Positions 13,130-57,455 are shown, numbered from the stretch's first letter. The stretch is 64,000 bases of DNA from Candidatus Omnitrophota bacterium (GCA_016867115.1 VGKG01000003.1:64673-128672); one strand, 5' to 3'. Notes: generated by a model from the sequence alone, not told the origin. A program made the numbers and translations.

Positions 13130-13141
13130 AGAGGGTTATTG

Positions 13142-14803: not shown

Positions 14804-14804
14804 T

Positions 14805-41922: not shown

Positions 41923-41923
41923 G

Positions 41924-43303
41924 ATGAACCTTCAGAGTTTTAAGGTAAAAGTCACTTTGATCCTGATCTTCTCCATGGTCTTTTCCCTGGCGGTAAGCAA
42001 TATGCTCATCTACCGCTTTGCGCTGGAGTCGCAGCTTAGCCAGTTAAGGGATAAGCTGATGATCATCGCCCAGACCGCAAGCCTGGTGGTCGATCCCAAA
42101 GCGCTGCTTGAGATACCCCTTAACCCCGAAGGGAAAAATACCCCTCAATATAAAGCAATCGAGAATAAGCTGGTAAAGATCCGGCAGGGAAACCCCTCTA
42201 TTACCTATATTTACGTGATGAGTATGACCGGCCAGGAGGGTATCTGGCAGTTTATTGTGGATGCCGAGGTCCCGGCTACCGTTAATCAGAGGACTGCCGA
42301 CCCGGGCGAAAAATACGACGCCAGCCGTTTTTCCGAGATACTTAAAGGCTTTCAGGGGCCCTCCGCAGACAGAGAACTTGAAGTCGATGAATGGGGGGCT
42401 ACCCTTTCCGGTTACGCCCCTGTTTATGACGAATCCGGCCGTCCTATCGCGCTATTGGGGGTGGATATCATGGCCGACGATGTCTTTAAGACGCAGCGCG
42501 AGGTGAACGTGCGCGTCTTTTCCATACTTTTCGGCGGGATCCTGCTTTCCATCTTTATCGGCATCTTATTCTCCCGTAAGATCACCGATCCGATCAAAAA
42601 ATTAGTCGAGGCGACCGGACACATCGCCGAAGGCAACTTCAATTTCCGCGTCCAGATAAAGAGCCAGGATGAGATCGGCCAGCTGGGGAACGCCTTTAAC
42701 CAGATGAGTGAGAGCCTGCATGAGGCAAAGGAGGAGCTGCACGGCTATTTTTACAAGATCGTGCAATCCTTAATCCGCGGCATCGAGGCAAAGGACCGCT
42801 ACACCCGCGGCCATTCTGAGCGGGTGGCGGAATACGCGGCTAAGATCGCCGCTGGCCTGGGCTTTCCGGAGGAAAAGATAGAGCTGTTAAGAGAGGCGGC
42901 CAGCCTCCATGATATAGGCAAACTCGGGGTCAAAGAGGATATCCTCAACAAGAAGGACAAGCTTAATGAGGAAGAGTGGGATATCATCCGCAGGCACCCG
43001 GCAGTCGGAGAGGATATATTGAAGCCGGTGATGTCGGACAAAGAGATGCTTACCGTCATCCGCGAGCATCATGAGCACTGCGACGGCTCGGGTTATCCCG
43101 ACAGGCTGAGCGCGGATAAGATCACCCTTTTTGCCAAGATCGTCGCCGTAGCCGACGCCTATGACGCGATGACCTCATCCCGCGCCTACCGGCCCGCCCT
43201 GAGCAGGGAAAAGGCGATAGAGGAGCTAAGAAAAGGCGCCGGCACCCAGTTTGACGAAAAGATTGTCGACGTTTTTATCGGGATACTCGCGCAGGAGGGC
43301 TAA
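41924..43303 (+). CDS. HD-GYP domain c-di-GMP phosphodiesterase with N-terminal TM/periplasmic sensor and HAMP
   Basis: RGHSERVAEYA...HDIGKLGV...HHEHCDGSGYPDRL. Confidence 0.75.
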   Translation: MNLQSFKVKVTLILIFSMVFSLAVSNMLIYRFALESQLSQLRDKLMIIAQTASLVVDPKALLEIPLNPEGKNTPQYKAIENKLVKIRQGNPSITYIYVMSMTGQEGIWQFIVDAEVPATVNQRTADPGEKYDASRFSEILKGFQGPSADRELEVDEWGATLSGYAPVYDESGRPIALLGVDIMADDVFKTQREVNVRVFSILFGGILLSIFIGILFSRKITDPIKKLVEATGHIAEGNFNFRVQIKSQDEIGQLGNAFNQMSESLHEAKEELHGYFYKIVQSLIRGIEAKDRYTRGHSERVAEYAAKIAAGLGFPEEKIELLREAASLHDIGKLGVKEDILNKKDKLNEEEWDIIRRHPAVGEDILKPVMSDKEMLTVIREHHEHCDGSGYPDRLSADKITLFAKIVAVADAYDAMTSSRAYRPALSREKAIEELRKGAGTQFDEKIVDVFIGILAQEG

Positions 43304-43364
43304 AATTTAGTAGACAATTCCGGGCAAATGTGGTAATCTAACCTTTCAATATTTTCGGGTTGTT

Positions 43365-43381
43365 TTGTGATCAGCTCACAA
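43365..43381 (+). promoter_or_regulatory. CRP/FNR-family binding site TTGTGATCAGCTCACAA upstream of the hydrogenase operon
   Basis: Perfect TGTGA-N6-TCACA palindrome 38 nt upstream of ATG 43419. Confidence 0.55.
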
Positions 43382-43418
43382 GTCACCCCGCCTTTTCCGC
43401 AAACCTAAAAATCCTTTT

Positions 43419-44516
43419 ATGGAGACGTATTTTTTAAAGAGCACGGATATCTTTAAGTTCTACGACCGGATAGCCTCTGAATACGAGCTCTATGTCCCGG
43501 TCAGGGTAAAGACTCCCGTCAAGGTAAAATGCGAATATCAGTCGCACCTTCCCACCGACGACTACCTGCTGAAGAAATACTCTGAAGCCAATAAAGAAGA
43601 GGTCTGTTTTAACGAATACCGCTGCGTGGAGCCTACCGCAAGGGCTTTTTTCACCCACTTTAAAGAAGAAGTCTGCGATTATTTTGCGCATCCGCCGAAA
43701 GAAGCGAAAGATAAACCCATCGCCTTATGCGGGGTAAAGAATTGCGACATCTTCTCCACTAGAATCCAGGATTTTGTCTTTCTGGGCGGCATTGACGAAG
43801 ACCCGGTCTATAAGGCAAGAAGAGAAAATGCCCTGATCATCTCCGGCGATTGCCCTAATTTCAAAGAGGCCTGTTTCTGCCGCGCCTTTGAAATAAACCC
43901 GCACTGCAACGAGGGATTTGATTTTAACTTTTCCCCTCTTACCGACGGATTTCTCGTCGATGTGGGCTCGGAAAGGGCGGGTAAGCTCGCAGGACTCATC
44001 AAGGATATGCTTGTCCCGGCCGGCTTTGGCCAGCTCTCCGGCAGGCAGGCCAAGAGAGAGACACTGATCCGGCAGATGGAGAGCCACCTTGCCCACCATA
44101 AGATCCCTAGAAAAGAGACGCTTCAAGAAATAGTACTGGCGGGTTACAATTCCAAGATCTGGAACGAAGAGATGTTTACTTGTGTGGAGTGCGGCGGCTG
44201 CATCTTTATCTGCGATACCTGTCACTGCTTCTTTCTCTCGGATGAGCCCCGGGACGGCAATACCAAAAGATACCGCGCCTGGGATGGCTGTTTATTGAAG
44301 AACTTCAGCCGCGTTGCCGGAGGGGCAAACCCCTTAAAGATGCGTCATATGCGCCTACGTAACCGCTATATGAAAAAGTTCGACTTTTTTGTGGATAATC
44401 TCGGGGTTCAGGCCTGCTGCGGCTGCGGCAGGTGCATCGAGGTCTGCCCGGGAAAGATCGATATCCGCCACATCTTAAGGAAGTTATATGAAGAAAAACA
44501 TCTACCGGCCGTTTGA
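43419..44516 (+). CDS. Fe-S subunit of an AsrA / sulfhydrogenase-beta (HydB)-like oxidoreductase
   Basis: Multiple Cys clusters: CVECGGCIFICDTCHC, CCGCGRCIEVCP. Confidence 0.65.
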   Translation: METYFLKSTDIFKFYDRIASEYELYVPVRVKTPVKVKCEYQSHLPTDDYLLKKYSEANKEEVCFNEYRCVEPTARAFFTHFKEEVCDYFAHPPKEAKDKPIALCGVKNCDIFSTRIQDFVFLGGIDEDPVYKARRENALIISGDCPNFKEACFCRAFEINPHCNEGFDFNFSPLTDGFLVDVGSERAGKLAGLIKDMLVPAGFGQLSGRQAKRETLIRQMESHLAHHKIPRKETLQEIVLAGYNSKIWNEEMFTCVECGGCIFICDTCHCFFLSDEPRDGNTKRYRAWDGCLLKNFSRVAGGANPLKMRHMRLRNRYMKKFDFFVDNLGVQACCGCGRCIEVCPGKIDIRHILRKLYEEKHLPAV

Positions 44517-45306
44517 GGCGGTTGTAGAGGACATCATCAGCGAGACTCCGACGATAAAGACCTTTGTCTTCCGTCCCAAAGAGCCGTTCAGTTTCAGGAC
44601 CGGCCAGTTCATCGAGCTGACTGTTCCGGGAATAGGGGAGGCGCCTTTTACCCCTTCTTCGGACCCCAATATCACCGAAAGGTTCGATGTCACCATCATG
44701 AAAGTGGGCCGGGTCACCGAACTCCTGCACGGCATAACCAAGGGCACGACCTTAGGCGTGCGCGGGCCTTACGGAAAGGGTTACCCGCTGGATAAATTTT
44801 ACGGCAAAGACGTCCTGATCGTCGGCGGAGGCGTGGGCCTTGCGCCTTTAAGGTCGCTGCTTTTCAGCCTATTTGCCGGGATCGATAAATATAATAAGGT
44901 GGTGCTGCGCTACGGTTCGCGCACCTCAGGAGACATCGTCTATAAGGAGGCTATTCCCGAATGGGCGAAGAAGAAAAAGGTTAACCTGGTCACCACCGTG
45001 GACGTGGGCGATCCTTCCTGGAAGGGCAATGTCGGCCTGGTAACCACTATCCTTAAAGACCTGCCCGTAGACCTTAATAATGCGGTGGCAATCGTCTGCG
45101 GCCCGCCGATCATGATGAAATTTGTGACCATGAAATTACTGGACCTCGGGTTTAAACCGGAACAGATTTATCTTTCTATGGAAAAAAGCATGTCCTGCGG
45201 CCTGGGTAAGTGCGGACACTGCCGTATCGGTAAGTTCTACGCCTGTAAGGACGGCCCGGTCTTTACTTACGAAGAATTGAAAGATATACACGATATTTGG
45301 GACTAA
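44488..45306 (+). CDS. FAD/NAD(P)-binding 2Fe-2S subunit (AsrB / HydG / PyrK-like)
   Basis: RxxS FAD motif region, GGGVGLAPL NAD(P) motif, C-terminal CGLGKCGHCRIGKFYAC 2Fe-2S motif. Confidence 0.7.
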   Translation: MKKNIYRPFEAVVEDIISETPTIKTFVFRPKEPFSFRTGQFIELTVPGIGEAPFTPSSDPNITERFDVTIMKVGRVTELLHGITKGTTLGVRGPYGKGYPLDKFYGKDVLIVGGGVGLAPLRSLLFSLFAGIDKYNKVVLRYGSRTSGDIVYKEAIPEWAKKKKVNLVTTVDVGDPSWKGNVGLVTTILKDLPVDLNNAVAIVCGPPIMMKFVTMKLLDLGFKPEQIYLSMEKSMSCGLGKCGHCRIGKFYACKDGPVFTYEELKDIHDIWD

Positions 45307-45366
45307 AATACAGTGGATAGTAGGTAGCAGTTAGTAGTCAGGGAAAGACAAAAACAAAAGAAAAGA

Positions 45367-45864
45367 ATGAAAAGATTGTTTATAGACTTAGATGTCTGCA
45401 ATAAATGCGAGGAGTGTAAGGTAACTTGCGACTATTTTTATCATCCGCAGAATAACGGGATCACGTCGCTGCGCGAGTATGCCACCTTTGCGACGATCTG
45501 CCGGCACTGTGAAGAAGCGCCCTGCGTCAACGCCTGTTACCATAACGCACTTGAGCGAGCCGCTGACGGCCACATCAAGCGCTACAAGATGCGCTGCACC
45601 AGCTGTAAAAGTTGCTCGGTAGCCTGCCCTTTTGGAGTGATCTTCCAGGATTTTATCCCTTATCTTGATTCCCGCTGCGATTACTGCACGGGCGAGACTA
45701 AGGAGCTGCCGAAGTGCCTCTCTACCTGCCCGGAAAAGGCAATTGAGGTCAAAGAAGTGGCTGAAGACCCGGAAAAGGATATCTATCTTGTGGGTGAGCA
45801 TCTGGCAGTGCATTCGCTCAAGTGGTCAAGGGAGGATGTGCAGCCTGCGCCGAAAAAAAGATGA
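45367..45864 (+). CDS. Polyferredoxin-type 4Fe-4S subunit (HycB/HyfA-like)
   Basis: Four Cys clusters: CNKCEECKVTC, CRHCEEAPCVNAC, CTSCKSCSVACP, CDYCTG...C. Confidence 0.6.
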   Translation: MKRLFIDLDVCNKCEECKVTCDYFYHPQNNGITSLREYATFATICRHCEEAPCVNACYHNALERAADGHIKRYKMRCTSCKSCSVACPFGVIFQDFIPYLDSRCDYCTGETKELPKCLSTCPEKAIEVKEVAEDPEKDIYLVGEHLAVHSLKWSREDVQPAPKKR

Positions 45865-46772
45865 AACTGCTGTTCGACTATCTAGTATTCCCCGGTTTTA
45901 TATTTAGCGCCTGTGTCGGCCTCATGGCCGGCTGGGTGGACAGGAAGGTTACTGCCAGGCTCCAGTGGCGCATAGGCCCGCCCTGGCATCAGAACTTCAC
46001 GGATATTTTAAAACTGCTCGGCAAGGAGACAATCGTTCCTGCCGGCACAAAGGCGACATTCCTACTGGCACCTTTTCTGGGCCTGGGCAGCCTGATCCTG
46101 GCAGCAACAATTCTTGGCCTCTCCGTAAGGAACCCCTTAGAGAGTTTTATCGGCGATCTGATCGTGGTCGTATATCTATTGACTATTCCGGCGATCTCCC
46201 TGATCATCGGAGCCTCCAGTTCCCAGAACCCTCTGGCTTCAGTCGGGGCTTCGCGGGAGATGAAGATGATTTTGGCTTATGAATTGCCGTTCATTCTGTC
46301 TATTGTCGCGGTGATTGTAAAAAGCTCAGGCGCAATAGAACTTGGCCAGATCTTGAACCACCAGCTTAATTCCGGTTCCAATATTTTTTCCTGGTCAGGG
46401 GCGCTTGCCTTTCTGGTCGCCATCTTGTGTATGCAGGCAAAGCTTGGGCTCGTCCCTTTTGATGCTTCAGAGGCAGAGCAGGAGATCATGGGAGGTACAT
46501 TGATCGAATATTCGGGCGCCCCCCTCGCAGTATTTAAATTGACCAAGGCGGTTATGCTCTACACCATGCCGTTTTTTCTGATCGTCCTGTTTCTGGGCAG
46601 GGATCTTAGTCCCCTGTTTATGATCGCAAAATACGCGATGCTCCTTGTGGTTATAGTACTGATCAAGAATACTAACCCGCGGCTGCGCATCGATCAGGCA
46701 TTAAGGTTTTTCTGGAGATTTCCGACGTTACTGGCTTTGATCGCCGTGATCCTGGCTTTATTCGGTAAGTAA
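45861..46772 (+). CDS. Membrane subunit MbhM/HycD/NuoH-like
   Basis: NuoH-family TM pattern; ATGA-coupled. Confidence 0.75.
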   Translation: MKLLFDYLVFPGFIFSACVGLMAGWVDRKVTARLQWRIGPPWHQNFTDILKLLGKETIVPAGTKATFLLAPFLGLGSLILAATILGLSVRNPLESFIGDLIVVVYLLTIPAISLIIGASSSQNPLASVGASREMKMILAYELPFILSIVAVIVKSSGAIELGQILNHQLNSGSNIFSWSGALAFLVAILCMQAKLGLVPFDASEAEQEIMGGTLIEYSGAPLAVFKLTKAVMLYTMPFFLIVLFLGRDLSPLFMIAKYAMLLVVIVLIKNTNPRLRIDQALRFFWRFPTLLALIAVILALFGK

Positions 46773-46773
46773 G

Positions 46774-47199
46774 ATGAGCTGGAAGATAAAAGCGCTAACT
46801 AAATCCATCTGGGTTTTTCACCTGAGCGTAGGTTCCTGCAACAACTGCGATATCGAGATCCTGGATTGCCTGACGCCCCGTTTTGATGTAGAGCGTTTCG
46901 GCATCCAGCTCATCGGTTCACCGCGCCACGCGGACGCGTTACTGGTCACTGGAGTCGCCACAAGGAAGAACATCCCGCGCATGAAAAAGATCTACGAACA
47001 GGTGCCTAAGCCCTGTGTAGTCATTGCCGTGGGCCAGTGTGCGATCTCGCAGCACATGTTCAGGTTCGGCTACAATGCGCCGCTTCCGGTGGATAAGATC
47101 CTTCCCGTGGACCTCTATATCCCCGGCTGCCCGCCGAAGCCTGAGGCGATGATCGACGGGATCGTGAAATTGGTGACTAAATTAAGAAAGGCAAAGTAA
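46774..47199 (+). CDS. [NiFe] hydrogenase small subunit, NuoB-like (MbhJ)
   Basis: GSCNNCDIE, GQCA and GCPP proximal-cluster Cys motifs. Confidence 0.8.
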   Translation: MSWKIKALTKSIWVFHLSVGSCNNCDIEILDCLTPRFDVERFGIQLIGSPRHADALLVTGVATRKNIPRMKKIYEQVPKPCVVIAVGQCAISQHMFRFGYNAPLPVDKILPVDLYIPGCPPKPEAMIDGIVKLVTKLRKAK

Positions 47200-47633
47200 T
47201 GGACGTAAGAAGCGCGATAAAAGATAAACTGGGCAATAAGATCATCGATTGGCAGGAAAAATCGACGCGGCGGAGCTACTTTAGCATCAAAAAAGAGCAC
47301 ATCCTCGAGACGGTAAAATTACTCTTTCACACCCTGGGCCTAAGATTCTCTATCGCCTCGGCTACAGATATGCCAGAAGGCCTTGAGATCCTCTACCATT
47401 TCAGTTTCGACGCGGCGGGTGAGTTTTATTCGGTGCGGGTGATCATCCCGGATAAGGCGCATCCCGAGGTGGATTCTATTACTCCGTTATTCCCGGGCGC
47501 TGAGTGGATCGAACGCGAGATGTGGGAACTCTTAGGGATCAATTTCAAGGGGCATCCGAATCTGAAGAGGCTGCTTTTGAGCGAAGACTGGCCGGAAGGC
47601 GAATATCCGTTGAGGCATAAAGATGAGTCATAA
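47199..47633 (+). CDS. NuoC-like 30-kDa subunit (MbhK)
   Basis: NuoC-family fold; E-x-E-x-W-E-L-LGI motif. Confidence 0.75.
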   Translation: MDVRSAIKDKLGNKIIDWQEKSTRRSYFSIKKEHILETVKLLFHTLGLRFSIASATDMPEGLEILYHFSFDAAGEFYSVRVIIPDKAHPEVDSITPLFPGAEWIEREMWELLGINFKGHPNLKRLLLSEDWPEGEYPLRHKDES

Positions 47634-48816
47634 AGTCATCGTACCCATAGGGCCGTATCATCCACTGCAGGAAGAGCCGGAGTTTTTCCAGCTTTATGTG
47701 GAGGGAGAAAAGGTCGTCGATATCGATATCATCATCGGGTATAATCACCGCGGCATTGAGAAGCTCTCCGAGTCCAAGCACATTGACCAGGTGCCTTTCC
47801 TGGTCGAGCGCATCTGCGGGATCTGCTCTTCCAGCCACCCTTACGCCTATGTGCTGGCAGTAGAGGACATCTTAGGAGGAGAGGCAAGCGTTGTACCGGA
47901 GAGGGCCCTCTATATCCGCACTATTATTGATGAATTACAAAGGATTCACAGCCACCTGTTGTGGCTGGGTCTTGCCGGCCATTTCATAGGTTATAATACG
48001 GTCTGGATGTGGGCCTGGAAATACCGCGAGCCGGTGCTGGACATGTTTGAGATGGTTACCGGAAACCGGAATAACTACGCCATGTTTAAGGTCGGCGGAG
48101 TGCGCCGGGATATTAAAGACGAGGACATTCCGGTATTAAAGAAGGCCCTGGATGATTTAGTCCCTGCCCTTGGAATGTTTCGCGGTGCGGTAATGGATGA
48201 TCCGGTAATCCAGGCGCGCCTGAAAAACGTCGGAGTCTTAACCAAAGAGCAGGCCATTGACTGGTGCGTGATCGGCCCCACGGCCCGCGCCTCGGGAGTA
48301 AATATCGATGTCAGGAGAGATGAGCCCTATGGGGTTACGGATAAGATCAACTGGAACGTGATCGTTGAAAAAGAGGGAGACATCTTTTCCAAGACCGTGG
48401 TCAGGATTCTTGAGATGTATGAAAGCGTGAGCATGATCCGGCAGTGCCTGGATAAGATGCCTAAAGGCAGCATTGATGCCGATATCCAGGATATTCCTCC
48501 TGGTGAGGGAATCGGCAGGGTTGAGGCGCCGCGGGGTGAGTGCTTTCACTACGTAAAAACCGACGGGACGAACCGGCTGATCCGGCATAAGGTGCGCGCG
48601 CCCAGCTTCATGAATGTCGCCTCAAATAAAGTGGCGGCGGTGGGCGGGACAATTTCAGATGCCACCATTACCCTGGCTGCGGTCGATCCCTGCTATTGCT
48701 GCACCGAGCGCGTGGCGGTCATCAATAAGATAGATAATAAAAAGATCCTGAACGGCTGGGACCTGATCAGGCTCTCCCAGGAAAAAACCCAAAAATTAAA
48801 GCTTCAGAAGAGATAG
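47623..48816 (+). CDS. Group 4 [NiFe] hydrogenase large subunit (MbhL/EchE/NuoD-like) with intact Ni-binding cysteines
   Basis: N-terminal RICGICSSSH and C-terminal DPCYCCTER CxxC pairs retained. Confidence 0.85.
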   Translation: MSHKVIVPIGPYHPLQEEPEFFQLYVEGEKVVDIDIIIGYNHRGIEKLSESKHIDQVPFLVERICGICSSSHPYAYVLAVEDILGGEASVVPERALYIRTIIDELQRIHSHLLWLGLAGHFIGYNTVWMWAWKYREPVLDMFEMVTGNRNNYAMFKVGGVRRDIKDEDIPVLKKALDDLVPALGMFRGAVMDDPVIQARLKNVGVLTKEQAIDWCVIGPTARASGVNIDVRRDEPYGVTDKINWNVIVEKEGDIFSKTVVRILEMYESVSMIRQCLDKMPKGSIDADIQDIPPGEGIGRVEAPRGECFHYVKTDGTNRLIRHKVRAPSFMNVASNKVAAVGGTISDATITLAAVDPCYCCTERVAVINKIDNKKILNGWDLIRLSQEKTQKLKLQKR

Positions 48817-48820
48817 ACAT

Positions 48821-49438
48821 ATGGAAAATCTATCCGCGATAAAGGAAAAGATTAATGAAATGGCAGCCCTGGTTGTATCAATGCTTGAGGCAACCTTCAA
48901 AGGGTTCATGAAGCATGATATAAAAATCCTTACCCGCGTATTAAAAGATGAAGACGCGCTGAATAAGACGGAAGAAGCCCTTACTGCATCTTTGGTGAAT
49001 CTCTCCAAAGGCGCTACGTCTGATACGGAGAGAGAAAATATCGCGCGCCTCTCCGACATAGTTACGGATCTGGAAGAGATCGGGGATTATATCAAAGATA
49101 TGGTTGAGAGGATTGAGATAAAGATAGAAGAGAAGCTCCTCTTTAGCGAAGAGGCATTGGATGAATACAAGCACGTTTACCGGGTGATTGAAACTGCGCT
49201 CTACGATATAGTAAACTCATTAAAACTGAATGATAAGAATTTTGCCCAGAGGATTTTAAGCGATGAGGGCCATGTGGATAGGCTGGCGCAGGAATACAGG
49301 CAGGCGCATACAGAGAGGCTCATTGCCGGAAAATGCGACCCCCGCGCCGGCAATATGTTTGTCGATCTTCTTGATTTTGCAGCCCAGATCTCTCACCATG
49401 CGATATCCGCGGCCAAGAGCATCCTGAAATTAAAATGA
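48821..49438 (+). CDS. PhoU-domain protein (two PhoU repeats) embedded in the hydrogenase operon
   Basis: 205 aa helical protein with duplicated E-x3-D PhoU-like motifs. Confidence 0.5.
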   Translation: MENLSAIKEKINEMAALVVSMLEATFKGFMKHDIKILTRVLKDEDALNKTEEALTASLVNLSKGATSDTERENIARLSDIVTDLEEIGDYIKDMVERIEIKIEEKLLFSEEALDEYKHVYRVIETALYDIVNSLKLNDKNFAQRILSDEGHVDRLAQEYRQAHTERLIAGKCDPRAGNMFVDLLDFAAQISHHAISAAKSILKLK

Positions 49439-51099
49439 TAGACTCTTTATACCCTTTATTTAAAGTGGACACCCTGAACGGCTTCGTGGCCCTGGCAGCC
49501 GGATTATTTACCGTTCTGACAGTGATTTTCTCTCTCAGGTTCATGAAGGGTAAGCCCGGGCTTACCCGGTATTATACCTATATTATAATGACCGCGGTCG
49601 CCTCTGCGGCGGCGGTCCTTTCCAATAACCTGATCTTACTCCTGGCCTGCTGGGGATTTCTCGGCCTGACCCTATATCTTCTGATTCTGACGAATAACGA
49701 TGCCGGCCTGATAGCAAAGAAAACCTTCATTATTGTGGGCGGCTCGGACGCCCTGATGCTTCTGGGGATAGGCATCATCTATTATCTTTCCGGTACGGTC
49801 CAGATGGACGAGATCAGTATTCCTTTGACCGGAGGCTCTCAGCTTCTGGCCGTCGTTGCTTATGTTTCGATCGCCATCGCCTGCTTCGCCAAAGCCGGGG
49901 CCATGCCTTTTCATTCCTGGATCCCGGATTGCGCGAAACTTGCGCCTGTGCCGGTAGTAGCATTTCTGCCTGCCTCCCTGGATAAATTATTGGGCATTTA
50001 CCTGTTGGCTAGGATCTCCCTCAATCTATTCGTGATGAGCGAGGCGATGAATATCTTCCTGATGCTGATCGGCGCCATCACCATCATCGCCGCGGTAATG
50101 ATGGCTTTGATCCAGCATAATATGAAGAAGCTCCTGGGTTACCATGCGGTTTCCCAGGTCGGATACATGGTTTTAGGTATCGGTACCGGAACACCCATCG
50201 GTATTGCGGGCGGGCTATTCCACATGCTGAATAATGCCGTATATAAATCCTGCCTCTTTCTGACCAGCGGTAACGTGGAGTATCGCACAGAGACTACTGA
50301 GCTGGATGAGCTGGGAGGCTTAAGCAGGGCCATGCCCCTGACTTATTTTGCCTGTTTAATTGCCAGCCTCTCTATCTCGGGTATCCCGCCTTTTAACGGC
50401 TTTGTCTCCAAGTGGATGGTCTATCAGGGGCTTATCGAACAGGCGGGGAGCTCCGGTTTCGTAATACGCTTTACGGCCGTTTTCTGCCTGGTGGCAGCCA
50501 TGTTTGGCTCAGGCCTGACCCTGGCCAGCTTTATGAAATTGATCCATGCCACATATCTTAGCCGCCAGCCCGACGCATTGAAGGCCAGAAAAATAAGCGA
50601 GGTTCCCTGGACGATGTGGCTTCCCTGCCTGGTCTTGGCGCTGATCTGTATTGTCTTTGGCGTCTTTGCCAATCAGCTGCCGCTTAAATACTTTATCCTT
50701 CCGGCAGTAGAAGGAGTATCCTTTATCGGGAGCTGGTATTCAGGATTGGCGACTTTGCTTATCGTCATCGGCCTCATCCTCGGTATTTTCGCCTTTAGGT
50801 TAAAAGGGCTGAAGCCCCTTGTCCGGGTAGATAGTGCCTGTGTGGGCGGAGAAGAACTTGACCTGGCTGCCAGCCGGGTTACCGGAACGGAATTTTATAA
50901 TACCATCAGGGACTTAGGCCCTTTAAAAAGGATTTATGCAAAAGCCGAAGCAGGCATTTTTGATATCTATGAGCAGGGAAAGGCCGCTGTTTTCAGTGTG
51001 GGGAAATTCCTGCAGTATCTGCATAACGGTATTTTACCGACGTACCTGGTCTGGACGCTTTTAGGGATGATCCTTTTATTTTTTATCCTGGTGAGATAA
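49435..51099 (+). CDS. Mrp antiporter-type subunit, NuoL/M/N family (MbhH-like)
   Basis: 14-TM antiporter-like fold; HMLNNAVYKSCLFL and GIPPFNGF motifs. Confidence 0.75.
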   Translation: MIDSLYPLFKVDTLNGFVALAAGLFTVLTVIFSLRFMKGKPGLTRYYTYIIMTAVASAAAVLSNNLILLLACWGFLGLTLYLLILTNNDAGLIAKKTFIIVGGSDALMLLGIGIIYYLSGTVQMDEISIPLTGGSQLLAVVAYVSIAIACFAKAGAMPFHSWIPDCAKLAPVPVVAFLPASLDKLLGIYLLARISLNLFVMSEAMNIFLMLIGAITIIAAVMMALIQHNMKKLLGYHAVSQVGYMVLGIGTGTPIGIAGGLFHMLNNAVYKSCLFLTSGNVEYRTETTELDELGGLSRAMPLTYFACLIASLSISGIPPFNGFVSKWMVYQGLIEQAGSSGFVIRFTAVFCLVAAMFGSGLTLASFMKLIHATYLSRQPDALKARKISEVPWTMWLPCLVLALICIVFGVFANQLPLKYFILPAVEGVSFIGSWYSGLATLLIVIGLILGIFAFRLKGLKPLVRVDSACVGGEELDLAASRVTGTEFYNTIRDLGPLKRIYAKAEAGIFDIYEQGKAAVFSVGKFLQYLHNGILPTYLVWTLLGMILLFFILVR

Positions 51100-51629
51100 T
51101 GGAACTACACCTGCTTTTACTCTTTATGATCATAACGGCCATCATCGCCATCGAGGTAAAGGACCTTTTATCCAGTGTCGTGGCCGTGGGCGCAGTGGGT
51201 TTTGCCCTTTGTGTCGCCTTTCTGATCCTGAAAGCGCCGGACCTGGCCATTACCCAGCTTGTGGTTGAGATCCTCTGCCTGATCATCCTGATCCGGGCGA
51301 CCATAAAGAAGGATTTGCCGCTGGTGATTGAAGGCCGCTGGGTCTTCAATACGGTCTCGACGGTGGTCTTTGTCGCGGTCTTTCTTTTCTTTGCCTATGC
51401 TGCACTCCGGGAACTTCCCCAGTTCGGTGAGCCGATGATGTCGGTGGTCAAAAAATATCTGGAAGAGGGGACGAGTGAGACCGGAGCGGTAAATCTGGTT
51501 ACTGCCGTGATCCTTGATTTTCGCGCCTATGATACGCTGGGAGAAGCCACGGTTCTATTTACCGCGGTGATCGGCATTATGGCGGTGCTTCGGCCTCGGG
51601 GAAGAAAAAAAGTTGAGGAGAAGGAATAA
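51099..51629 (+). CDS. MnhB-related membrane subunit (DUF4040 / MbhD-E-like)
   Basis: Hydrophobic 176 aa; position within the Mrp module. Confidence 0.5.
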   Translation: MELHLLLLFMIITAIIAIEVKDLLSSVVAVGAVGFALCVAFLILKAPDLAITQLVVEILCLIILIRATIKKDLPLVIEGRWVFNTVSTVVFVAVFLFFAYAALRELPQFGEPMMSVVKKYLEEGTSETGAVNLVTAVILDFRAYDTLGEATVLFTAVIGIMAVLRPRGRKKVEEKE

Positions 51630-52078
51630 TGGCCTTTGAGCAAAAAAGCGGGATGTCTCTGATCGTTAAGACCATTACCCGCCTGACCGTCGGCCTGATC
51701 TTAATCTTTGGCATTTACATAGTCTTGCACGGGCACCTGTCTCCCGGCGGCGGATTTGCCGGAGGCGTGATCATTGCCCTGGCCTTTGTGCACCTGATGC
51801 TTGCCTTTGGCAAAGACGCCGTCACTACCAGGATCTCTAAAGAGATGGCTTCAAATCTTGAGAGTATCGGCGCGCTCATGTTCCTGGTCATCGCCCTGAT
51901 CGGTTATTTCGGAGGTTCATTCTTTCTGAATATCCTGAGCAAAGGTACTCCGTTTGAGCTGTTTAGTTCCGGTACTATTCCCTTAAGTAACGCCGCAATC
52001 AGTTTAAAAGTAGGGGTAGGGCTATTTGCCATATTCCTGGCATTGGTGATATTAGAGGGGTCGAAGAGGGAGAAATGA
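51629..52078 (+). CDS. Mrp subunit B (MnhB)
   Basis: LSPGGGFAGG signature. Confidence 0.65.
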   Translation: MAFEQKSGMSLIVKTITRLTVGLILIFGIYIVLHGHLSPGGGFAGGVIIALAFVHLMLAFGKDAVTTRISKEMASNLESIGALMFLVIALIGYFGGSFFLNILSKGTPFELFSSGTIPLSNAAISLKVGVGLFAIFLALVILEGSKREK

Positions 52079-52413
52079 CGCTCTATTTATTGTGCCTGGC
52101 ATTGTTTTCTGTTGGCCTTTACGGGGTTTTACGTAAGCGTAACCTCGTAAAGATCATCATTGGCCTGGGGATCATCGAATATTCGATGAACCTCTTCTTT
52201 GTGCTCCTAGGTTACCGCTATCACGGCCGCGCGCCTATTGACGCCCAGGCCCAGGACATCCTGAATATGGTTGACCCGCTTCCCCAGGCGCTGGTACTTA
52301 CTTCGATCGTCATCGGCCTCGGGGTGACTGCATTAGTCATCTCTATTGCCATCAGGATTTACGAGAAGTACGGCACATTCGATATCACAAAGATCAAACG
52401 GCTAAAAGGCTAA
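52075..52413 (+). CDS. Mrp subunit C (NuoK-like)
   Basis: 112 aa, 3 TM helices, NuoK-like. Confidence 0.65.
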   Translation: MTLYLLCLALFSVGLYGVLRKRNLVKIIIGLGIIEYSMNLFFVLLGYRYHGRAPIDAQAQDILNMVDPLPQALVLTSIVIGLGVTALVISIAIRIYEKYGTFDITKIKRLKG

Positions 52414-53925
52414 ATGCAAAACGCAAATATCATTCCTTTGTTTGTGATTATACCGCTGGCAGCTGCTTTTCTGATCTCCCTGATCGGCAGATATGTGAGC
52501 CTGCGCTTCACTAATGCTATTTCGGGCCTGGCCTGTTTTATGCTTTTGGGATTCTCGCTTTACAGTGTATACGTATTGCAGGCCCAGGGCATCCCCGCCC
52601 TGGTTTACAAAGTCGGCGGCTGGGCTATACCCTTTGGTATATGCATGGTCCTTGACGGGCTGACTGCTTTTATGCTGGTCACCGTGAATCTGGTCGCTTT
52701 TTTTGTCAGTATTTATTCGCTCAGCTACATGGATAAATACACAGACCGGCCGAAGTTCTTTACTCTCTTTTTCCTGATGCTCACAGGAATGAACGGCCTG
52801 ATCGTGACCGGAGACCTGTTTAATCTTTTTGTCTTCCTTGAGATCGCCTCCATCGCCAGCTACGCCTTAGTCGCCTTCGGCACCGAGGCAGAAGAATTAG
52901 AGGCCTCTTTTAAATACGCGATCATGGGTTCAGTCGCCTCAAGTTTCATTTTTATCGGAATCGCCTTTTTATACGGCTTTACCTCTACCCTGAATATGGC
53001 GGATATGGCGCAGGTCCTGAACTCCAAGCCCAATCTCTGGGTAGTCCCTTTTGTTACCGTGCTCTTTTTAATGGGTTTTGGCTTAAAGGCAGCGATCGTG
53101 CCCTTCCATGCGTGGCTGCCGGATGCGCATCCGTCTGCTCCGGCCTCAATTTCTGCGATGCTCTCCGGAGTCCTGATCAAAACTCTCGGGGTCTATGCCA
53201 TGGTCAGGGTCTTCTTTAATGTCCTGGGCGTAAGCCAGGCGGTCTTATCTATGTTGATGTTTCTGGGCGCGCTCTCCATGCTGGTAGCGGTCTTTTTGGC
53301 GGTTTCGCAGTGGGACTTAAAGCGGCTCTTGGCCTACCACTCTATCAGCCAGATCGGTTATGTGATTTTAGGTATAGGCCTCGGTACGCCTTTAGGGATC
53401 CTAGGCGGCCTTTTTCATTTGTTCAATCATTCGGTATTTAAATCCCTCCTTTTTTTAAATTCCGGTTCAATAGATTACGCTGTCGGCACGCGCGACTTAA
53501 ACGAAATGGGCGGCTTAAAAGAGAAGATGCCGCTTACCAGCAGCACAAATCTGGTCGCCTCCATGTCTATTGCCGGGATTCCGCCTTTTAACGGGTTTTT
53601 CAGCAAATTGATCATTATTTTTGCCTGCCTTCAGAAAGGCTATTTAGGCTATGCCGTGGCTGCGGTGATCGGCTCGCTTCTGACCCTGGCCAGCTTTATG
53701 AAGGTGCAGAAGTACGCCTTTTTAGGTACCCTGAAAGAAAAATACAGCCAGATAAAGGAAGTGCCTCTGGCCATGCAATTCTCTATGATTTGTTTAGCCA
53801 TTATTTGTATCCTCGGCGGTTTACTCTTATTGCCTGCGCTTAAGTTCTTCCTGAATGACGCTGTGAATGTGCTCCTGGAGGGCAGGGAATATGCCCGGGT
53901 AGTTATGGGATTGAGCGGAAGATGA
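52414..53925 (+). CDS. Mrp subunit D (NuoM/N-like antiporter)
   Basis: FHAWLPDAHP and GIPPFNGF motifs. Confidence 0.75.
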   Translation: MQNANIIPLFVIIPLAAAFLISLIGRYVSLRFTNAISGLACFMLLGFSLYSVYVLQAQGIPALVYKVGGWAIPFGICMVLDGLTAFMLVTVNLVAFFVSIYSLSYMDKYTDRPKFFTLFFLMLTGMNGLIVTGDLFNLFVFLEIASIASYALVAFGTEAEELEASFKYAIMGSVASSFIFIGIAFLYGFTSTLNMADMAQVLNSKPNLWVVPFVTVLFLMGFGLKAAIVPFHAWLPDAHPSAPASISAMLSGVLIKTLGVYAMVRVFFNVLGVSQAVLSMLMFLGALSMLVAVFLAVSQWDLKRLLAYHSISQIGYVILGIGLGTPLGILGGLFHLFNHSVFKSLLFLNSGSIDYAVGTRDLNEMGGLKEKMPLTSSTNLVASMSIAGIPPFNGFFSKLIIIFACLQKGYLGYAVAAVIGSLLTLASFMKVQKYAFLGTLKEKYSQIKEVPLAMQFSMICLAIICILGGLLLLPALKFFLNDAVNVLLEGREYARVVMGLSGR

Positions 53926-54416
53926 AAAGCAAACTAGCCCTTTTTATCATCGGTTTTATCATCTGGATGCTTTTATCCTGGCCGCCGGATATCCAGCATG
54001 CCGTCGTAGGCATCTTTGTTTCTGGCCTGGCCGCCTTCTTAACCGGAGATTTATTTACCCGCCGGCCGCAACACTTTGCCGACATAAAGAGGTATTTGTG
54101 GTTCGGCTATTACATCCCGGTCTTTCTCTGGGAGTGCCTGAAGGCAAATATCGATGTGGCGCTACGCGTGCTTAGCCCGGGATTGCCGATAAACCCGGGG
54201 ATTGTGAAGGTAAAAACTACCCTTAAGTCCGACACCGGGCTGACCTTTCTGGCTAATTCTATCACCCTTACTCCCGGCACATTCTGTGTGGATATAAAAC
54301 CCGAAGAGGGCATCCTTTACATCCACTGGATCGACGTCAAGGCCCAGGATACCGAAAAGGCGACCCAGTTGATCGTGACCAAGTTTGAGAGTATCTTAAA
54401 GAGGATTTTTGAATAA
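53922..54416 (+). CDS. Mrp subunit E (MnhE)
   Basis: MnhE-family conserved blocks. Confidence 0.6.
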   Translation: MKSKLALFIIGFIIWMLLSWPPDIQHAVVGIFVSGLAAFLTGDLFTRRPQHFADIKRYLWFGYYIPVFLWECLKANIDVALRVLSPGLPINPGIVKVKTTLKSDTGLTFLANSITLTPGTFCVDIKPEEGILYIHWIDVKAQDTEKATQLIVTKFESILKRIFE

Positions 54417-54784
54417 TGGGTTATCGAAAGTACCTTTCCTGGTTTTTACTCTTTTTTCTGATTTCGGCAACATTATTCTTTATCGGTTTCTTTACCGTCC
54501 CTTCGCTTCTAGAATGGCAGTCGCCATTTCTGTCGCGCTGTTTCTTTATCCTGATGATCTGTTTTGCCTTATGCTTGATCCGGCTGATAGTCGGGCCTAC
54601 GCCGGCTGACCGGGCAGTGGCAGTGGACACCTTAGGGATCCTGATCGTAGGTTTTTGCGCTATCTTAAGTATCCCCACCGGAAGGGACTGGTACATTGAT
54701 ATTGCCATTGCCTGGGCATTGCAGAGCTTTATCGGCGCCTTGGCCCTGGCAAAATACCTGGAAGGAAGGGGTTTTGATGAGTAG
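54416..54784 (+). CDS. Mrp subunit F (MnhF)
   Basis: 3-TM MnhF pattern. Confidence 0.6.
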   Translation: MGYRKYLSWFLLFFLISATLFFIGFFTVPSLLEWQSPFLSRCFFILMICFALCLIRLIVGPTPADRAVAVDTLGILIVGFCAILSIPTGRDWYIDIAIAWALQSFIGALALAKYLEGRGFDE

Positions 54785-54789
54785 AATAA

Positions 54790-54829
54790 AGATTACACAG
54801 ATTAAAGAAATCAGATTACACAGATTAAA
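54790..54829 (+). repeat. Two perfect 17-nt direct repeats AGATTACACAGATTAAA in the mrpF-mrpG intercistronic gap
   Basis: Copies at 54790-54806 and 54813-54829. Confidence 0.8.
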
Positions 54830-54832
54830 AAA

Positions 54833-55162
54833 ATGATAGAGATCGTGGGATATATATTCATTATTATAGGCCTGGTCTTTGATATCTTTGGCTGTATCGG
54901 CCTTTTACGGCTGCCGGATGTTTATAACCGCCTGCAGGCGACGACAAAATGCGTGACTTTAGGCACCACAAGTATCCTTTTGGGGACCATGGTAATCAAA
55001 GGTTTTACTTCCACGGGAGTAAAGGCATTGCTTTGCATTGTCTTTTTGATTCTGACTGCGCCCGTGGCTGCCCATGCGCTTTCTCGCGGCGCCCATATTT
55101 CCGGGGTCAAGCTCTGGGAAAAATCTGTCTGCGACAAATACGCTGAAGACAAAAAGCAGTAG
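54833..55162 (+). CDS. Mrp subunit G (MnhG)
   Basis: MnhG-family pattern, 109 aa. Confidence 0.7.
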   Translation: MIEIVGYIFIIIGLVFDIFGCIGLLRLPDVYNRLQATTKCVTLGTTSILLGTMVIKGFTSTGVKALLCIVFLILTAPVAAHALSRGAHISGVKLWEKSVCDKYAEDKKQ

Positions 55163-55197
55163 TTAGCAGATAGCAGGTAGTAGTTAGGGAGAAGTAA

Positions 55198-55809
55198 ATG
55201 CGTTATCCGAAACTAAGAGAATTAAAAGAGGCGATCAAGGCGCTCATCAAAGGGCCTTATACCAGCAAGTTCCCTTACCAGGCGCATGAGCCGTACGAGC
55301 GCTTCCGCGGCCGGCCTTATTTTCACGAGGAAGACTGCACAGGCTGCACTGCCTGCGCCGAGGTCTGCCCCACAACCGCTATTGAGGTGGAAGATAAGGT
55401 TTCAGGAGGCAAAGCAAAGAGGCGACTTACCGTCCACTGGGATATCTGTATCTGCTGCGGCCAGTGCGAGCTGAATTGCCTTACCGGCAAAGGCATCACC
55501 CTTTCCCGGGAGTTCGCCTACGCCACTACCGAAAGCAAGAGCGAACTCAAACAGGAGATAGACAAGGAGTTCGTCACCTGCGAATGCTGCGGCGAGCCGG
55601 TCGTCCCCTATGACCAGTATGCCTGGGTCGCAAAGCGCCTCGGGCCCCTTTGTTTCTCCAATTCCTCTCTCATGCTTTTCTACCTTAAGCTCTTGGGCCT
55701 GGCTTTTAGGAGTAAGCCTTCTACCCGCAAGAAGACAGAGGTCTTACGCCAGGACCGCATCGGAATCCTTTGCCCCCGCTGCCGCCGCGAAGCAGTTTTA
55801 AAATCATAA
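55198..55809 (+). CDS. NuoI-like 2x[4Fe-4S] ferredoxin subunit (MbhN-like)
   Basis: CTGCTACAEVCP and CICCGQCELNC motifs. Confidence 0.7.
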   Translation: MRYPKLRELKEAIKALIKGPYTSKFPYQAHEPYERFRGRPYFHEEDCTGCTACAEVCPTTAIEVEDKVSGGKAKRRLTVHWDICICCGQCELNCLTGKGITLSREFAYATTESKSELKQEIDKEFVTCECCGEPVVPYDQYAWVAKRLGPLCFSNSSLMLFYLKLLGLAFRSKPSTRKKTEVLRQDRIGILCPRCRREAVLKS

Positions 55810-55835
55810 AAATAAAAAGATTAGGGATTTTAAAT

Positions 55836-55911
55836 GATTACACAGATTTCTTTAGATTACACAGATTGAAAACTTTAATCTGTAGAATCTGTATTCATAA
55901 TCTGTGTAATC
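55836..55911 (+). repeat. Nested inverted-repeat structure built from the GATTACACAGATT motif (two direct copies plus three inverted or degenerate copies)
   Basis: Direct copies at 55836-55849 and 55854-55867; inverted copies AATCTGTAGAATC at 55877-55889 and AATCTGTGTAATC at 55899-55911, forming a perfect 13-bp inverted repeat with the direct copy. Confidence 0.75.
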
Positions 55912-55924
55912 AATTATTAATAAG

Positions 55925-57163
55925 ATGTTTTCCTCCCTCAAGGTCCGCGATTTCCGCCTCTACTGGTTCGGGATGCTTGTTTCGCTTGTCGGCACCTGGA
56001 TCCAGTCCGTAGCCCAGAGTTGGCTCGTCTTTCAATTGACCGGCTCAGCTTTTCTTCTGGGGGTGGTCGGTTTCTTAAGCTCGATTCCGATATTTGTTTT
56101 TTCGCTCTTTGGCGGCCTGCTGGCTGACCGCCTGAACAAGAGAAAGATCCTCCTTGCCACCCAGACCTCCTTTATGCTCCTTGCTTTTCTACTGGCCGCA
56201 CTTACCCAGCTGAAGCTGGTTACTCCGGCTCAGATCATGTTCATTGCATGTTTAAACGGTGCGGTCATGGCTTTTGACGCGCCCAGCCGCCAGGCAGTGG
56301 TAGTGGAGCTGGTAGGTAAAGAGCATCTTTTAAACGCCATTGCCTTAAACTCCGTGGCCTTCAACTCCAGCCGCATCATCGGCCCGGCCGTGGCCGGGAT
56401 CCTGGTGGCTACGATCGGCATGAGCGGCTGTTTCTACCTGAACGGCATAAGCTTCCTGGCGGTGATTCTGGCGCTCGCCGTGATCCGCACGCACAACCAC
56501 GTAAAAGCCAATAAGAAGGCAGGGCTGATCTTAGACCTGAAAGAGGGCTTTAGCTTCGTAAAAAAACATTACCTGATCCTGGTCTTGGTAGCCATGGTGG
56601 GGATGGTGAGTCTATTCGGCGTGGGCTACATCATCCTGATGCCGGTCTTTGCAGAGCAGGTCTTAAAAGCCGGGGTGAAGGGCTTAGGGGTATTGATGTC
56701 TGCTTCCGGCTTTGGCGCCCTGATCGGCGCATTGACCCTGGCGCGGCTGGGTGACTTTCGTTATAAGGGAAAGCTTCTTTTGGCATCCAGCCTCATTTAC
56801 TCGGTTTCCCTGATTCTTTTTTCACTCTCTCAGGCCTTTTTCTTTGCGTTGATAGCTCTATTCCTGATTGGCGCAGGCGGCGTCACTTCCATCGCCCTGA
56901 TCAATACCCTTTTACAGTCAGGAGTGCCGGATGAGTTCCGGGGCCGGGTAATGAGCATCTTTATGCTTACCTTTGCCGGTTTTATGCCCTTCGGCAATCT
57001 CTTTGCCGGCAGTCTCGCGCAGGTAATCGGGGTCTCCGCAACCATATTCTTAAGCGGGGTAATTTGCACCATTTTCTTCATTCTTATTAACCTGATTTAC
57101 CCCCAAATACGCAGCCTAAAGCAACAGATTGGACATTCATTCCAGGCTGAGACCCCCCTTTAA
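55925..57163 (+). CDS. MFS transporter (DHA/EntS-like)
   Basis: 12 TM helices; GGLLADR MFS motif A. Confidence 0.7.
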   Translation: MFSSLKVRDFRLYWFGMLVSLVGTWIQSVAQSWLVFQLTGSAFLLGVVGFLSSIPIFVFSLFGGLLADRLNKRKILLATQTSFMLLAFLLAALTQLKLVTPAQIMFIACLNGAVMAFDAPSRQAVVVELVGKEHLLNAIALNSVAFNSSRIIGPAVAGILVATIGMSGCFYLNGISFLAVILALAVIRTHNHVKANKKAGLILDLKEGFSFVKKHYLILVLVAMVGMVSLFGVGYIILMPVFAEQVLKAGVKGLGVLMSASGFGALIGALTLARLGDFRYKGKLLLASSLIYSVSLILFSLSQAFFFALIALFLIGAGGVTSIALINTLLQSGVPDEFRGRVMSIFMLTFAGFMPFGNLFAGSLAQVIGVSATIFLSGVICTIFFILINLIYPQIRSLKQQIGHSFQAETPL

Positions 57164-57440: not shown

Positions 57441-57455
57441 GCTTCCCCTGGAGAA

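Follow-up and report, generated by a model that had tools for sequence, protein, structure and literature searches.

A Hun-family group-4 [NiFe] hydrogenase cluster in an Omnitrophota bacterium, with a Mrp-type antiporter arm, a candidate NAD(P)H input module and a predicted Rex operator

We analysed a 64,000-nucleotide stretch of DNA from a Candidatus Omnitrophota bacterium (GCA_016867115.1 VGKG01000003.1:64673-128672; the whole stretch is called the window here, and positions are counted from its first letter), which carries a gene cluster for a [NiFe] hydrogenase joined to a Mrp-type antiporter. The cluster occupies 43419-55809 and consists of 17 co-directional open reading frames (ORFs) on the + strand, and neither the overlaps nor the gaps between neighbours exceed 60 bp. 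Gene identities were assigned by Pfam and NCBIfam profile searches of the window proteins. Apart from details corrected below, the ORF scan and the profile searches agreed with an earlier note on this DNA, which had described a single + strand cluster of 17 genes, and its description of one operon-like unit is supported. Sixteen of the genes are called hunA to hunP here, after the published family introduced below, and the seventeenth encodes a PhoU-fold protein. Promoter and terminator scans of 43000-57600 did not inform the transcript structure: promoter-like sites were no more frequent than in shuffled sequence, and internal terminator-like hairpins were weak. To collect relatives we scanned one genome per GTDB species with the large subunit, HunG, and then searched the loci by tblastn with the 17 window proteins. 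HunG relatives were found in at least 439 stretches.

The first three genes encode an electron-input module. The product of hunA (43419..44516, +) is a 365-residue Fe-S subunit resembling AsrA and the sulfhydrogenase beta subunit (Pfam Fer4_22, 6e-27); its best solved homologue is SHI beta (PDB 9nez_B, 1.1e-32), and 15 of its Cys are invariant across 58 homologues. The ORF of hunB (44488..45306, +) overlaps that of hunA by 29 bp and encodes a 272-residue protein resembling AsrB and the sulfhydrogenase gamma subunit, with FAD, NAD(P) and [2Fe-2S] binding domains (Pfam FAD_binding_6, NAD_binding_1 and DHODB_Fe-S_bind). Among solved structures it matches SHI gamma best (PDB 9nez_C, 1.7e-57), and the motifs GEaPFTPSS, GGGVGLAPLR, VCGPPiMMKF and CG.G.C.HC are invariant in 60 homologues spanning two phyla. 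After a gap of 60 bp follows hunC (45367..45864, +), which encodes a 165-residue connector ferredoxin of the HycB/CooF type with four [4Fe-4S] motifs (Pfam Fer4_11). The best PDB match of HunC is HycB of the E. coli formate hydrogenlyase (FHL; 7z0s_B, 2.3e-13), and none of the 16 HunC Cys is missing from more than one of 68 homologues, while 13 occur in every one. In NCBIfam, HunA matched ShyB (1e-41), HydB (3e-37) and AsrA (3e-28), all under the equivalog cut-offs, and HunB matched the AsrB/HydG models far under theirs. Because of these scores, HunA and HunB are best classed as a distinct subfamily related to ShyBC, HydBG and AsrAB rather than as those proteins proper. The likeness to sulfhydrogenase beta/gamma and AsrAB that had been proposed for this module is borne out to that extent, with 9nez_B and 9nez_C as best structural matches and AsrA/AsrB profile matches under the cut-offs. 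SHI beta/gamma has been described as the NADPH-oxidising part of sulfhydrogenase (PMC13582414). No ORF for AsrC, the sirohaem subunit, lies within 43419-55809, and the cluster contains no molybdopterin (MopB) ORF; in 61 loci the gap between hunB and hunC never exceeds 169 bp, too little for an additional gene. This lack of space excludes an FHL, or a so-called Mbh-Mrp-oxidoreductase, with a molybdopterin subunit at that position.

The hydrogenase core follows. The membrane subunit HunD (45861..46772, +; 303 residues; Pfam NADHdh, 1.3e-62) is NuoH/MbhM-like, and its start is most likely the ATG at 45861 rather than the GTG at 45822, because the ATG forms an ATGA overlap with the preceding stop and agrees with the gene call on an identical JGI contig. 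The NuoB-like small subunit HunE (46774..47199, +; Pfam Oxidored_q6, 6e-29) has four proximal-cluster Cys, C22, C25, C89 and C119, that are invariant in 78 of 78 homologues, and it is followed by the NuoC-like HunF (47199..47633, +; Pfam Complex1_30kDa, 3.8e-27) and by the [NiFe] large subunit HunG (47623..48816, +; Pfam Complex1_49kDa and NiFeSe_Hases). The translation of hunG contains the motifs ERICGICS and DPCYCCTER, with all four Ni-ligand Cys present, and then a C-terminal extension of 34 residues. Among 82 relatives RICGIC is kept in all, DPCYCCTER in 81 and the Ni ligands in all. In a PDB search HunG matched MbhL best (6cfw_L, 1.8e-85), followed by HycE (2.7e-74) and MbsL (1.4e-46), and the bit score was 290 against MbhL compared with 162 against MbsL, which lacks the Ni site. 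Together with the small-subunit Cys, the conserved ligands identify HunG as a genuine group-4 [NiFe] hydrogenase large subunit with predicted H2 activity, as had been argued from the four cysteines before. The Ni-ligand motifs and the PDB ranking, with MbsL far weaker than MbhL, rule out a non-hydrogenase of the Mbx/Mbs, Ehr or Nuo type. In HycE the C-terminal tail has the same arrangement and is cleaved off by HycI. Neither hycI nor hyp genes were found in the window; in Kosmotoga olearia hycI, hypF, hypC and hypD come directly after the hun cluster, and hycI lies near hun in the Omnitrophota loci L004, L022, L028, L040, L049, L075 and L076. The last gene of the cluster, hunP (55198..55809, +), encodes a 203-residue NuoI/HycF-like subunit with two [4Fe-4S] clusters (Pfam Fer4_7; NCBIfam FHL iron-sulfur subunit, 1.1e-22; PDB HycF 7z0s_F, 3.6e-14). 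Besides the eight canonical Cys it has four extra ones, C128, C131, C192 and C195, which are invariant in 46 of 46 homologues and could be ligands of a third cluster or of zinc.

Between the core and hunP lies the antiporter arm. It begins with HunH (49435..51099, +; 554 residues; Pfam Proton_antipo_M, 3.7e-55), an antiporter-like subunit corresponding to the N-terminal part of MrpA, to MbhH and to NuoL (PDB matches to MbhH, 1.8e-47, and MrpA, 2.6e-42), and with HunI (51099..51629, +; Pfam MbhD and MbhE), a MbhD+MbhE-like protein that represents the MrpA C-terminal domain (DUF4040) and matched residues ~600-790 of MrpA, its C-terminal third, in NCBIfam. The profile matches thus identify HunH and HunI as a split MrpA. 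The remaining subunits are MrpB/MnhB-like HunJ (51629..52078, +; Pfam MnhB, 1.1e-26), MrpC/NuoK-like HunK (52075..52413, +; Pfam Oxidored_q2, 1.4e-26), the second antiporter-like subunit HunL, which is MrpD-like (52414..53925, +; 503 residues; Pfam Proton_antipo_M, 5.8e-69; NCBIfam MrpD families), MrpE-like HunM (53922..54416, +; Pfam MNHE, 1.2e-44), MrpF-like HunN (54416..54784, +; Pfam MrpF_PhaF, 2.8e-18) and MrpG-like HunO (54833..55162, +; Pfam PhaG_MnhG_YufB, 1.5e-25). The complete Mrp module of the earlier note therefore stands, as a full Mrp-type arm in A-G order, and its two MrpB-like subunits are reduced to one, since gene 10 (hunI) is the C-terminal part of MrpA. The canonical A-G order also agrees with its remark that the gene order differs from that of Pyrococcus Mbh. 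The number of antiporter-like subunits varies among relatives: the 45 complete clusters have two (29 clusters, the window type), three (10) or one (6). In the three-pump form an extra gene of 463 codons follows the PhoU gene (for example L007), and in the one-pump form MrpB-G are all missing (for example L022); the regions to compare with 49435-55162 in the window are 11811-15097 in L007 and 11807-14142 in L022. HunG is 82-89% identical throughout the one-, two- and three-pump loci, which share the same input and catalytic genes. This series suggests a tunable ratio of ions to electrons.

We assign the cluster, from its gene content, order and motifs, to the published Hun family as an Omnitrophota member with an inserted PhoU gene. 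A 16-subunit operon of this composition was named Hun (hunA-P) by Glass et al., 2021 (bioRxiv 10.1101/536078), who listed Atribacteria, Firmicutes, Omnitrophica, Elusimicrobia, Bacteroidetes and Kosmotoga as carriers and placed HunG in HydDB group 4g yet distant from other 4g enzymes, with the motif pair CGIC/CYCC. The assignment rests on the CGIC...CYCC pair and on shared gene content: the 16 genes recur, in unchanged order, in the listed carrier K. olearia; hunA-F are present and co-linear in all 54 Omnitrophota loci with enough upstream flank; and of the 43 loci whose downstream flank is long enough, 39 have the complete Mrp set together with the NuoI-like gene. The K. olearia cluster (strain TBF 19.5.1, CP001634.1, ~608.4-629.6 kb) lacks the PhoU gene, and its subunits are 33-61% identical to those of the window. 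Kosmotoga HunG (57-59% identity) served as the comparator in place of the Atribacteria reference HunG, RXG63129. The main text of the K. olearia transcriptome paper yielded no locus-level data for the hun cluster. The best 80 of the at least 439 stretches are all Omnitrophota by name or sequence similarity, with HunG 75-89% identical, and HunG of the window is 100% identical to proteins of a 'Candidatus Omnitrophica bacterium' metagenome-assembled genome (MAG) and of a JGI freshwater contig. Among representatives of 50%-identity clusters only two are close to HunG (58-59%), one of them from K. olearia, and the rest are at most 47% identical. The earlier note had called such coupling not a well-characterised hydrogenase subtype, but the architecture was already published as the Hun supercomplex; because the cluster belongs to this family, its novelty is modest. 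Related observations have been made elsewhere. Hydrogenases called 'group 4g, Mrp-linked' were reported as the sole hydrogenase of the Omnitrophota MAGs that bear them (Williams et al., PMC8542988), and HydDB group 4g has been described as polyphyletic and annotated as putatively ferredoxin-coupled. In Saganbacteria, asrA-, asrB- and cooF-like genes and a molybdopterin protein lie by a Mrp-linked group-4 hydrogenase whose closest relatives are from Omnitrophica (Matheus Carnevali et al., PMC6349859). AsrA/AsrB/CooF-linked Mbh-Mrp hydrogenases were noted in Elusimicrobia (10.1101/765248), and a 2026 paper found SHI-beta/gamma homologues in some group-4b clusters (PMC13582414).

The gene that sets the window cluster apart from the 16-gene Hun set lies between hunG and hunH (48821..49438, +) and encodes a PhoU-fold protein of 205 residues (Pfam PhoU, 1.1e-17). 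The AlphaFold2 (AF2) model has a confidence score (pLDDT) of 94.7 and the canonical six-helix PhoU fold, and Foldseek aligned it to the PhoU structures 1t72 and 4q25 with TM scores of 0.86-0.90. The gene occurs in 44 of 72 Omnitrophota loci and in all of the one-pump and three-pump forms. All source-named matches of the protein are from Omnitrophota, and most matches are unnamed. On these matches the gene appears as an Omnitrophota-only, lineage-specific accessory. In source annotations it is labelled a fragment of a Na/Pi cotransporter.

Upstream of the cluster, 38 nt before the hunA ATG, lies a Rex-operator-like inverted repeat, TTGTGA-TCAGC-TCACAA (43365..43381, no strand assigned), with a 5-nt (N5) spacer. 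Its core palindrome TGTGA-TCAGC-TCACA (43366-43380) is the sole match of its kind in the window. At least one match with a spacer of N4-8 occurred in 9 of 100 shuffles, so the window box alone is not significant and becomes so only because it is conserved in relatives. In 1.16 Mb of Omnitrophota loci we found 24 exact TGTGA-N5/6-TCACA sites, every one of them just upstream of hunA (21 N6 and three N5). The consensus of the hunA-upstream boxes is AATTTGTGATAATTTTCACAAAGT, that is TTGTGAT-N4-TTCACAA, with TTGTGAT as the common left half-site. When TTGTGA-N6-TCACAA was sought with at most one mismatch in ~1.25 Mb, 26 sites appeared: 22 upstream of hunA, including that of Kosmotoga, and four upstream of a rex gene that precedes hunA. 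In K. olearia the canonical box stands 16 nt before hunA. The experimentally defined Rex operator is TTGTGAAW4TTCACAA, and Rex leaves the DNA as NADH rises (PMC2883068). Homologues of rex above the NCBIfam cut-offs are present in seven loci, directly upstream of hunA in L075, L071, L046, L018 and L025 and two genes upstream in L068 and L067; the L075 gene is a 210-codon ORF encoding the Rex domain pair. Rex-type boxes also lie ~30-170 bp upstream of the rex that precedes hunA in four loci (L018 3113, L025 2598, L071 4934, L075 4935). Boxes at this position imply autoregulated rex-hun units in some Omnitrophota. At the level of the family, then, 21 N6 boxes at the orthologous position, the linkage to rex and the boxes before rex all agree, and the hunA-upstream box is most likely a Rex operator, to which Rex is predicted to bind. 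Compared with the 18-bp canonical operator, TTGTGAA-N4-TTCACAA, in which 6 bp separate the half-sites, the window site has perfect half-sites and a spacer one base short. We found no earlier report in the literature of a Rex operator in Omnitrophota or for hun.

Taken as a whole, the cluster reads as a Hun-family group-4 hydrogenase (4g, CYCC-type) with a Mrp arm, NAD(P)H input and Rex regulation, a reading that we consider somewhat likelier to hold than to fail. As the electron donor, NAD(P)H seems to us a better candidate than the ferredoxin of the published proposal, because the FAD, NAD(P) and [2Fe-2S] motifs of HunB are invariant and because SHI gamma, the solved protein that HunB matches best, binds NADPH. 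In the proposed mechanism NAD(P)H would be oxidised at the HunB FAD, and electrons would pass from the HunB [2Fe-2S] cluster through at least three [4Fe-4S] clusters of HunA, four of HunC and two or three clusters of HunP to the proximal cluster of HunE and the Ni-Fe site of HunG, where H+ would be reduced to H2 at the end of a chain of ~11-12 Fe-S clusters. This would be a formate-hydrogenlyase-like wiring, with a nicotinamide dehydrogenase in the place of FdhH; it is suggested by the matches of HunC to HycB and of HunP to HycF. The sequence shows a catalytic core HunE/F/G/P with HunD as its membrane anchor, and the HunD/Mrp arm would couple the reaction to Na+/H+ movement. The standard free energy of H2 formation from NAD(P)H is ~+18 kJ/mol (E0' -320 vs -414 mV), so the reaction would have to run near equilibrium or be driven by ion-motive force. 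At high H2, ion-motive force would be spent on expelling H2, and at very low H2 a little energy would be conserved or the enzyme would run in reverse. Rex would repress hun through the operator just upstream of hunA, and since Rex is a repressor that senses NADH/NAD+, hun would be expressed when NADH accumulates; release of Rex at rising NADH is in keeping with an enzyme that draws down NAD(P)H. Because Hun is the sole hydrogenase in the reported Omnitrophota MAGs (PMC8542988), it must also dispose of NADH-derived reductant there. In its most specific form the proposal is that Hun acts as an NAD(P)H hydrogenlyase, in which a SHI-type dehydrogenase feeds a HycB-like ferredoxin and a group-4 [NiFe] enzyme, coupled to Na+/H+ through Mrp, induced through Rex and fitted with one to three pump modules, a number that would be tuned among close relatives within the Omnitrophota. 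This combination we put forward tentatively, as a possibility that falls a little short of an even chance.

Several points weigh against the NAD(P)H reading and its Rex component. The donor of the nearest characterised relatives, Mbh and Ech, is ferredoxin; it docks at their NuoI-like subunit, of which Hun also has a counterpart. The scores of HunA and HunB lie far under the equivalog cut-offs for ShyB/HydB/AsrA and AsrB/HydG, respectively. Rex senses NADH, whereas SHI gamma uses NADPH, and HunB may prefer either nucleotide; the direction given for ion flow is purely conjectural. The only published donor proposal is ferredoxin (bioRxiv 10.1101/536078), and a literature search found no biochemical study of any Hun complex. 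As to the operator, in 31 of 55 Omnitrophota loci no box can be recognised immediately before hunA (three of these have one before the adjacent rex), the window box is of the rarer, non-canonical N5 form, and a search of the window found no rex gene. The N5 spacer makes Rex control of the window copy less certain.

The strongest competitor is a ferredoxin-driven Hun, in which HunABC would serve as a relay only and exergonic H2 evolution would drive Na+/H+ export via the Mrp arm as in Pyrococcus Mbh. It was proposed by Glass et al., agrees with the putatively ferredoxin-coupled annotation of HydDB 4g and with the ferredoxin-dependent Mbh being the best solved homologue of HunG, and could draw on the 2-oxoacid:ferredoxin oxidoreductase encoded in the window, which would supply reduced ferredoxin. 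However, it assigns no function to the domains of HunB that bind FAD and NAD(P) and are strictly conserved, Mbh and Ech take up ferredoxin without such a module, and Rex control points to the NADH pool, although Rex also governs ferredoxin-dependent hydrogenases in other bacteria. We regard this scheme as unlikely, though one to be taken seriously. A dual-donor enzyme, either confurcating or with parallel inputs, would take electrons from NAD(P)H at HunB and from reduced ferredoxin at either HunC or HunP, and the exergonic ferredoxin branch would offset the endergonic NAD(P)H branch. The cluster does encode a docking subunit of the ferredoxin type, HunP, as well as an NAD(P)H-type module, and AlphaFold models of related group-4b clusters with SHI beta/gamma and an Fdh-like protein had prompted the proposal of a branched layout resembling bifurcation (PMC13582414). 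Since a recognisable bifurcating flavin site is absent, with only the single FNR-type FAD of HunB, and the Fdh-like third branch is missing, with no room for it between hunB and hunC, we find this scheme doubtful.

The operator has a competing explanation of its own. The earlier note had read the box as a perfect CRP-type site, TGTGA-N6-TCACA, which does not survive inspection: the spacer is 5 nt, the box family fits the Rex operator, and rex genes adjoin. A site for some CRP/FNR-family regulator would still share the TGTGA...TCACA core that is common to CRP-type sites, and a protein with a cyclic-nucleotide (cNMP)-binding domain is encoded downstream of the cluster in some relatives. That protein carries a patatin domain, however, with no DNA-binding domain reported for it; the extended consensus TTGTGA(A/T)-N4-TTCACAA is that of the Rex operator, and rex flanks the site in seven loci and has its own copy of the box in four. 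A CRP/FNR site in place of a Rex operator is therefore improbable.

Returning to the hydrogenase, we consider it more improbable still that its physiological role is H2 uptake, by which Hun would oxidise H2, reduce NAD(P)+ and pump ions as the energy-conserving uptake enzyme of acetogenic Omnitrophota. With textbook potentials, electron transfer from H2 to NAD(P)+ releases ~18 kJ/mol in the standard state, and at least one Omnitrophota MAG with a Hun-type ('group 4g, Mrp-linked') enzyme has the Wood-Ljungdahl pathway (PMC8542988), but derepression by Rex at high NADH/NAD+ suits an NADH consumer rather than a producer, and Kosmotoga, with the same operon, is an H2-producing fermenter (PMC5674127). 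Finally, the idea that hunA and hunB are what remains of an AsrAB reductase for sulfite or sulfur and have no relation to the hydrogenase deserves almost no credence: the NCBIfam AsrA and AsrB models do match both proteins, but under the cut-offs, AsrC is absent, and the pair, with its overlapping ORFs and short distance to hunC, is co-linear with the hydrogenase genes in 54 of 54 Omnitrophota loci and in Kosmotoga. This synteny, which the earlier note had suggested examining in related MAGs, makes the AsrAB-like pair an integral part of the hydrogenase cluster and, with the lack of AsrC, effectively refutes an independent AsrAB fragment.

The surroundings of the cluster were also inspected. 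A gene for a transporter of the MFS_3 / EntS-like type lies 115 bp downstream of hunP (55925-57163) and is kept at the same position in ~25 other Omnitrophota loci (57-83% identity); because of this conserved position it may be co-transcribed with the hydrogenase. A gene with HAMP and HD-GYP domains (c-di-GMP phosphodiesterase-type) lies between yqeY and hunA at 41903-43303 in this window only, and in L075 a GAF + HD-GYP gene (3222-4661) stands just before rex-hunA; their proximity to hunA may be coincidence. Upstream synteny of housekeeping genes extends from 33081 to 41922 in comparison with the distant Omnitrophota locus L004 (1-5365), with mnmA, nadA, a pseudouridine synthase, a pfkB-family kinase and yqeY followed by hunA, and the window has an MFS gene, an AMP-binding/acyltransferase fusion and bacA as extra insertions. 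At 9027-10361, 13139-15656, 15897-16748 and 18012-19199 the window encodes, respectively, a hybrid-cluster (prismane) protein, a two-subunit 2-oxoacid:ferredoxin oxidoreductase, a fusion of peroxiredoxin and pterin-4a-carbinolamine dehydratase, and a flavodiiron protein, which are markers of an anaerobic redox and oxidative-stress toolkit. Two Thi4-family paralogues are also present in the window (599-1375 and 23705-24517), the second of them near cysteine-synthase-like and homocysteine-biosynthesis (HcyBio) genes.

The donor of Hun and the direction of its coupling would shape redox balance and H2 exchange with partners in these abundant anaerobes, and they matter for Omnitrophota physiology because of the number of stretches with HunG relatives and because Hun is the sole hydrogenase in the reported MAGs. 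If the preferred reading is true, NAD(P)H would be a fourth class of donor for group-4 hydrogenases, after ferredoxin, formate and CO, and Hun would be an independent, complex-I-like link of the NAD(P)H pool to the membrane gradient through H2. An ion-translocating hydrogenase coupled to NAD(P)H would also bear on the origin of complex I from group-4 hydrogenases. The choice between NAD(P)H and ferredoxin is directly testable, because K. olearia is cultured and carries the identical operon, and the Rex link and the one-, two- and three-pump variants offer concrete, checkable predictions.

Comparison with known systems places these features in context. The closest is the Hun complex of Glass et al. 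(bioRxiv 10.1101/536078), with the same 16 genes and order, an AsrAB-like HunAB without AsrC, the CGIC/CYCC pair and a Mrp-like Na module, and with Omnitrophica among its listed carriers; the window adds the PhoU-fold gene, and that paper does not mention an NAD(P)H module or a Rex operator. Pyrococcus furiosus Mbh (group 4d; 6CFW) shares the NuoB/C/D/H/I and Mrp-derived core and is the best solved homologue of HunG and HunH, but it has 14 subunits (mbhA-N), a single antiporter-like subunit where the window has two, another Mrp order, no HunABC, and ferredoxin as its donor. With E. coli FHL-1 (group 4a; 7Z0S) Hun shares the path from a dehydrogenase through a HycB-type ferredoxin and HycF to the small and large subunits, as well as the HycE-like tail, and HycB and HycF are the best matches of HunC and HunP among respiratory complexes; in contrast to FHL-1, Hun has neither FdhH nor another molybdopterin subunit, and a full Mrp set replaces HycC/HycD. 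The group-4(b) 'Mbh-Mrp-oxidoreductase' clusters (Saganbacteria RX5A, PMC6349859; Elusimicrobia, 10.1101/765248; PMC13582414) likewise have AsrA-, AsrB- and CooF-like genes by a Mrp-linked group-4 hydrogenase, but they carry an FdhH-like molybdopterin subunit, for which the 61 Hun loci have no space. SHI beta/gamma of P. furiosus (9NEZ) and Salmonella AsrAB are homologues of HunA and HunB in fold and motifs; the SHI pair feeds a soluble group-3b hydrogenase and AsrAB feeds the sirohaem subunit AsrC, whereas HunAB is attached to a membrane-bound group-4 enzyme. In the Rex regulons of Firmicutes and Thermotogae, TTGTGAA-W4-TTCACAA likewise lies between the promoter and the start codon of fermentative and hydrogenase genes, and Rex is autoregulated there; the hun boxes differ in that the left half-site is mostly TTGTGAT and the spacer is one base shorter in the window and three other species. 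What is added here to these systems is the cross-phylum Rex operator with its rex linkage, the argument from motifs that NAD(P)H is the input, the accessory PhoU gene and the one-, two- and three-pump series.

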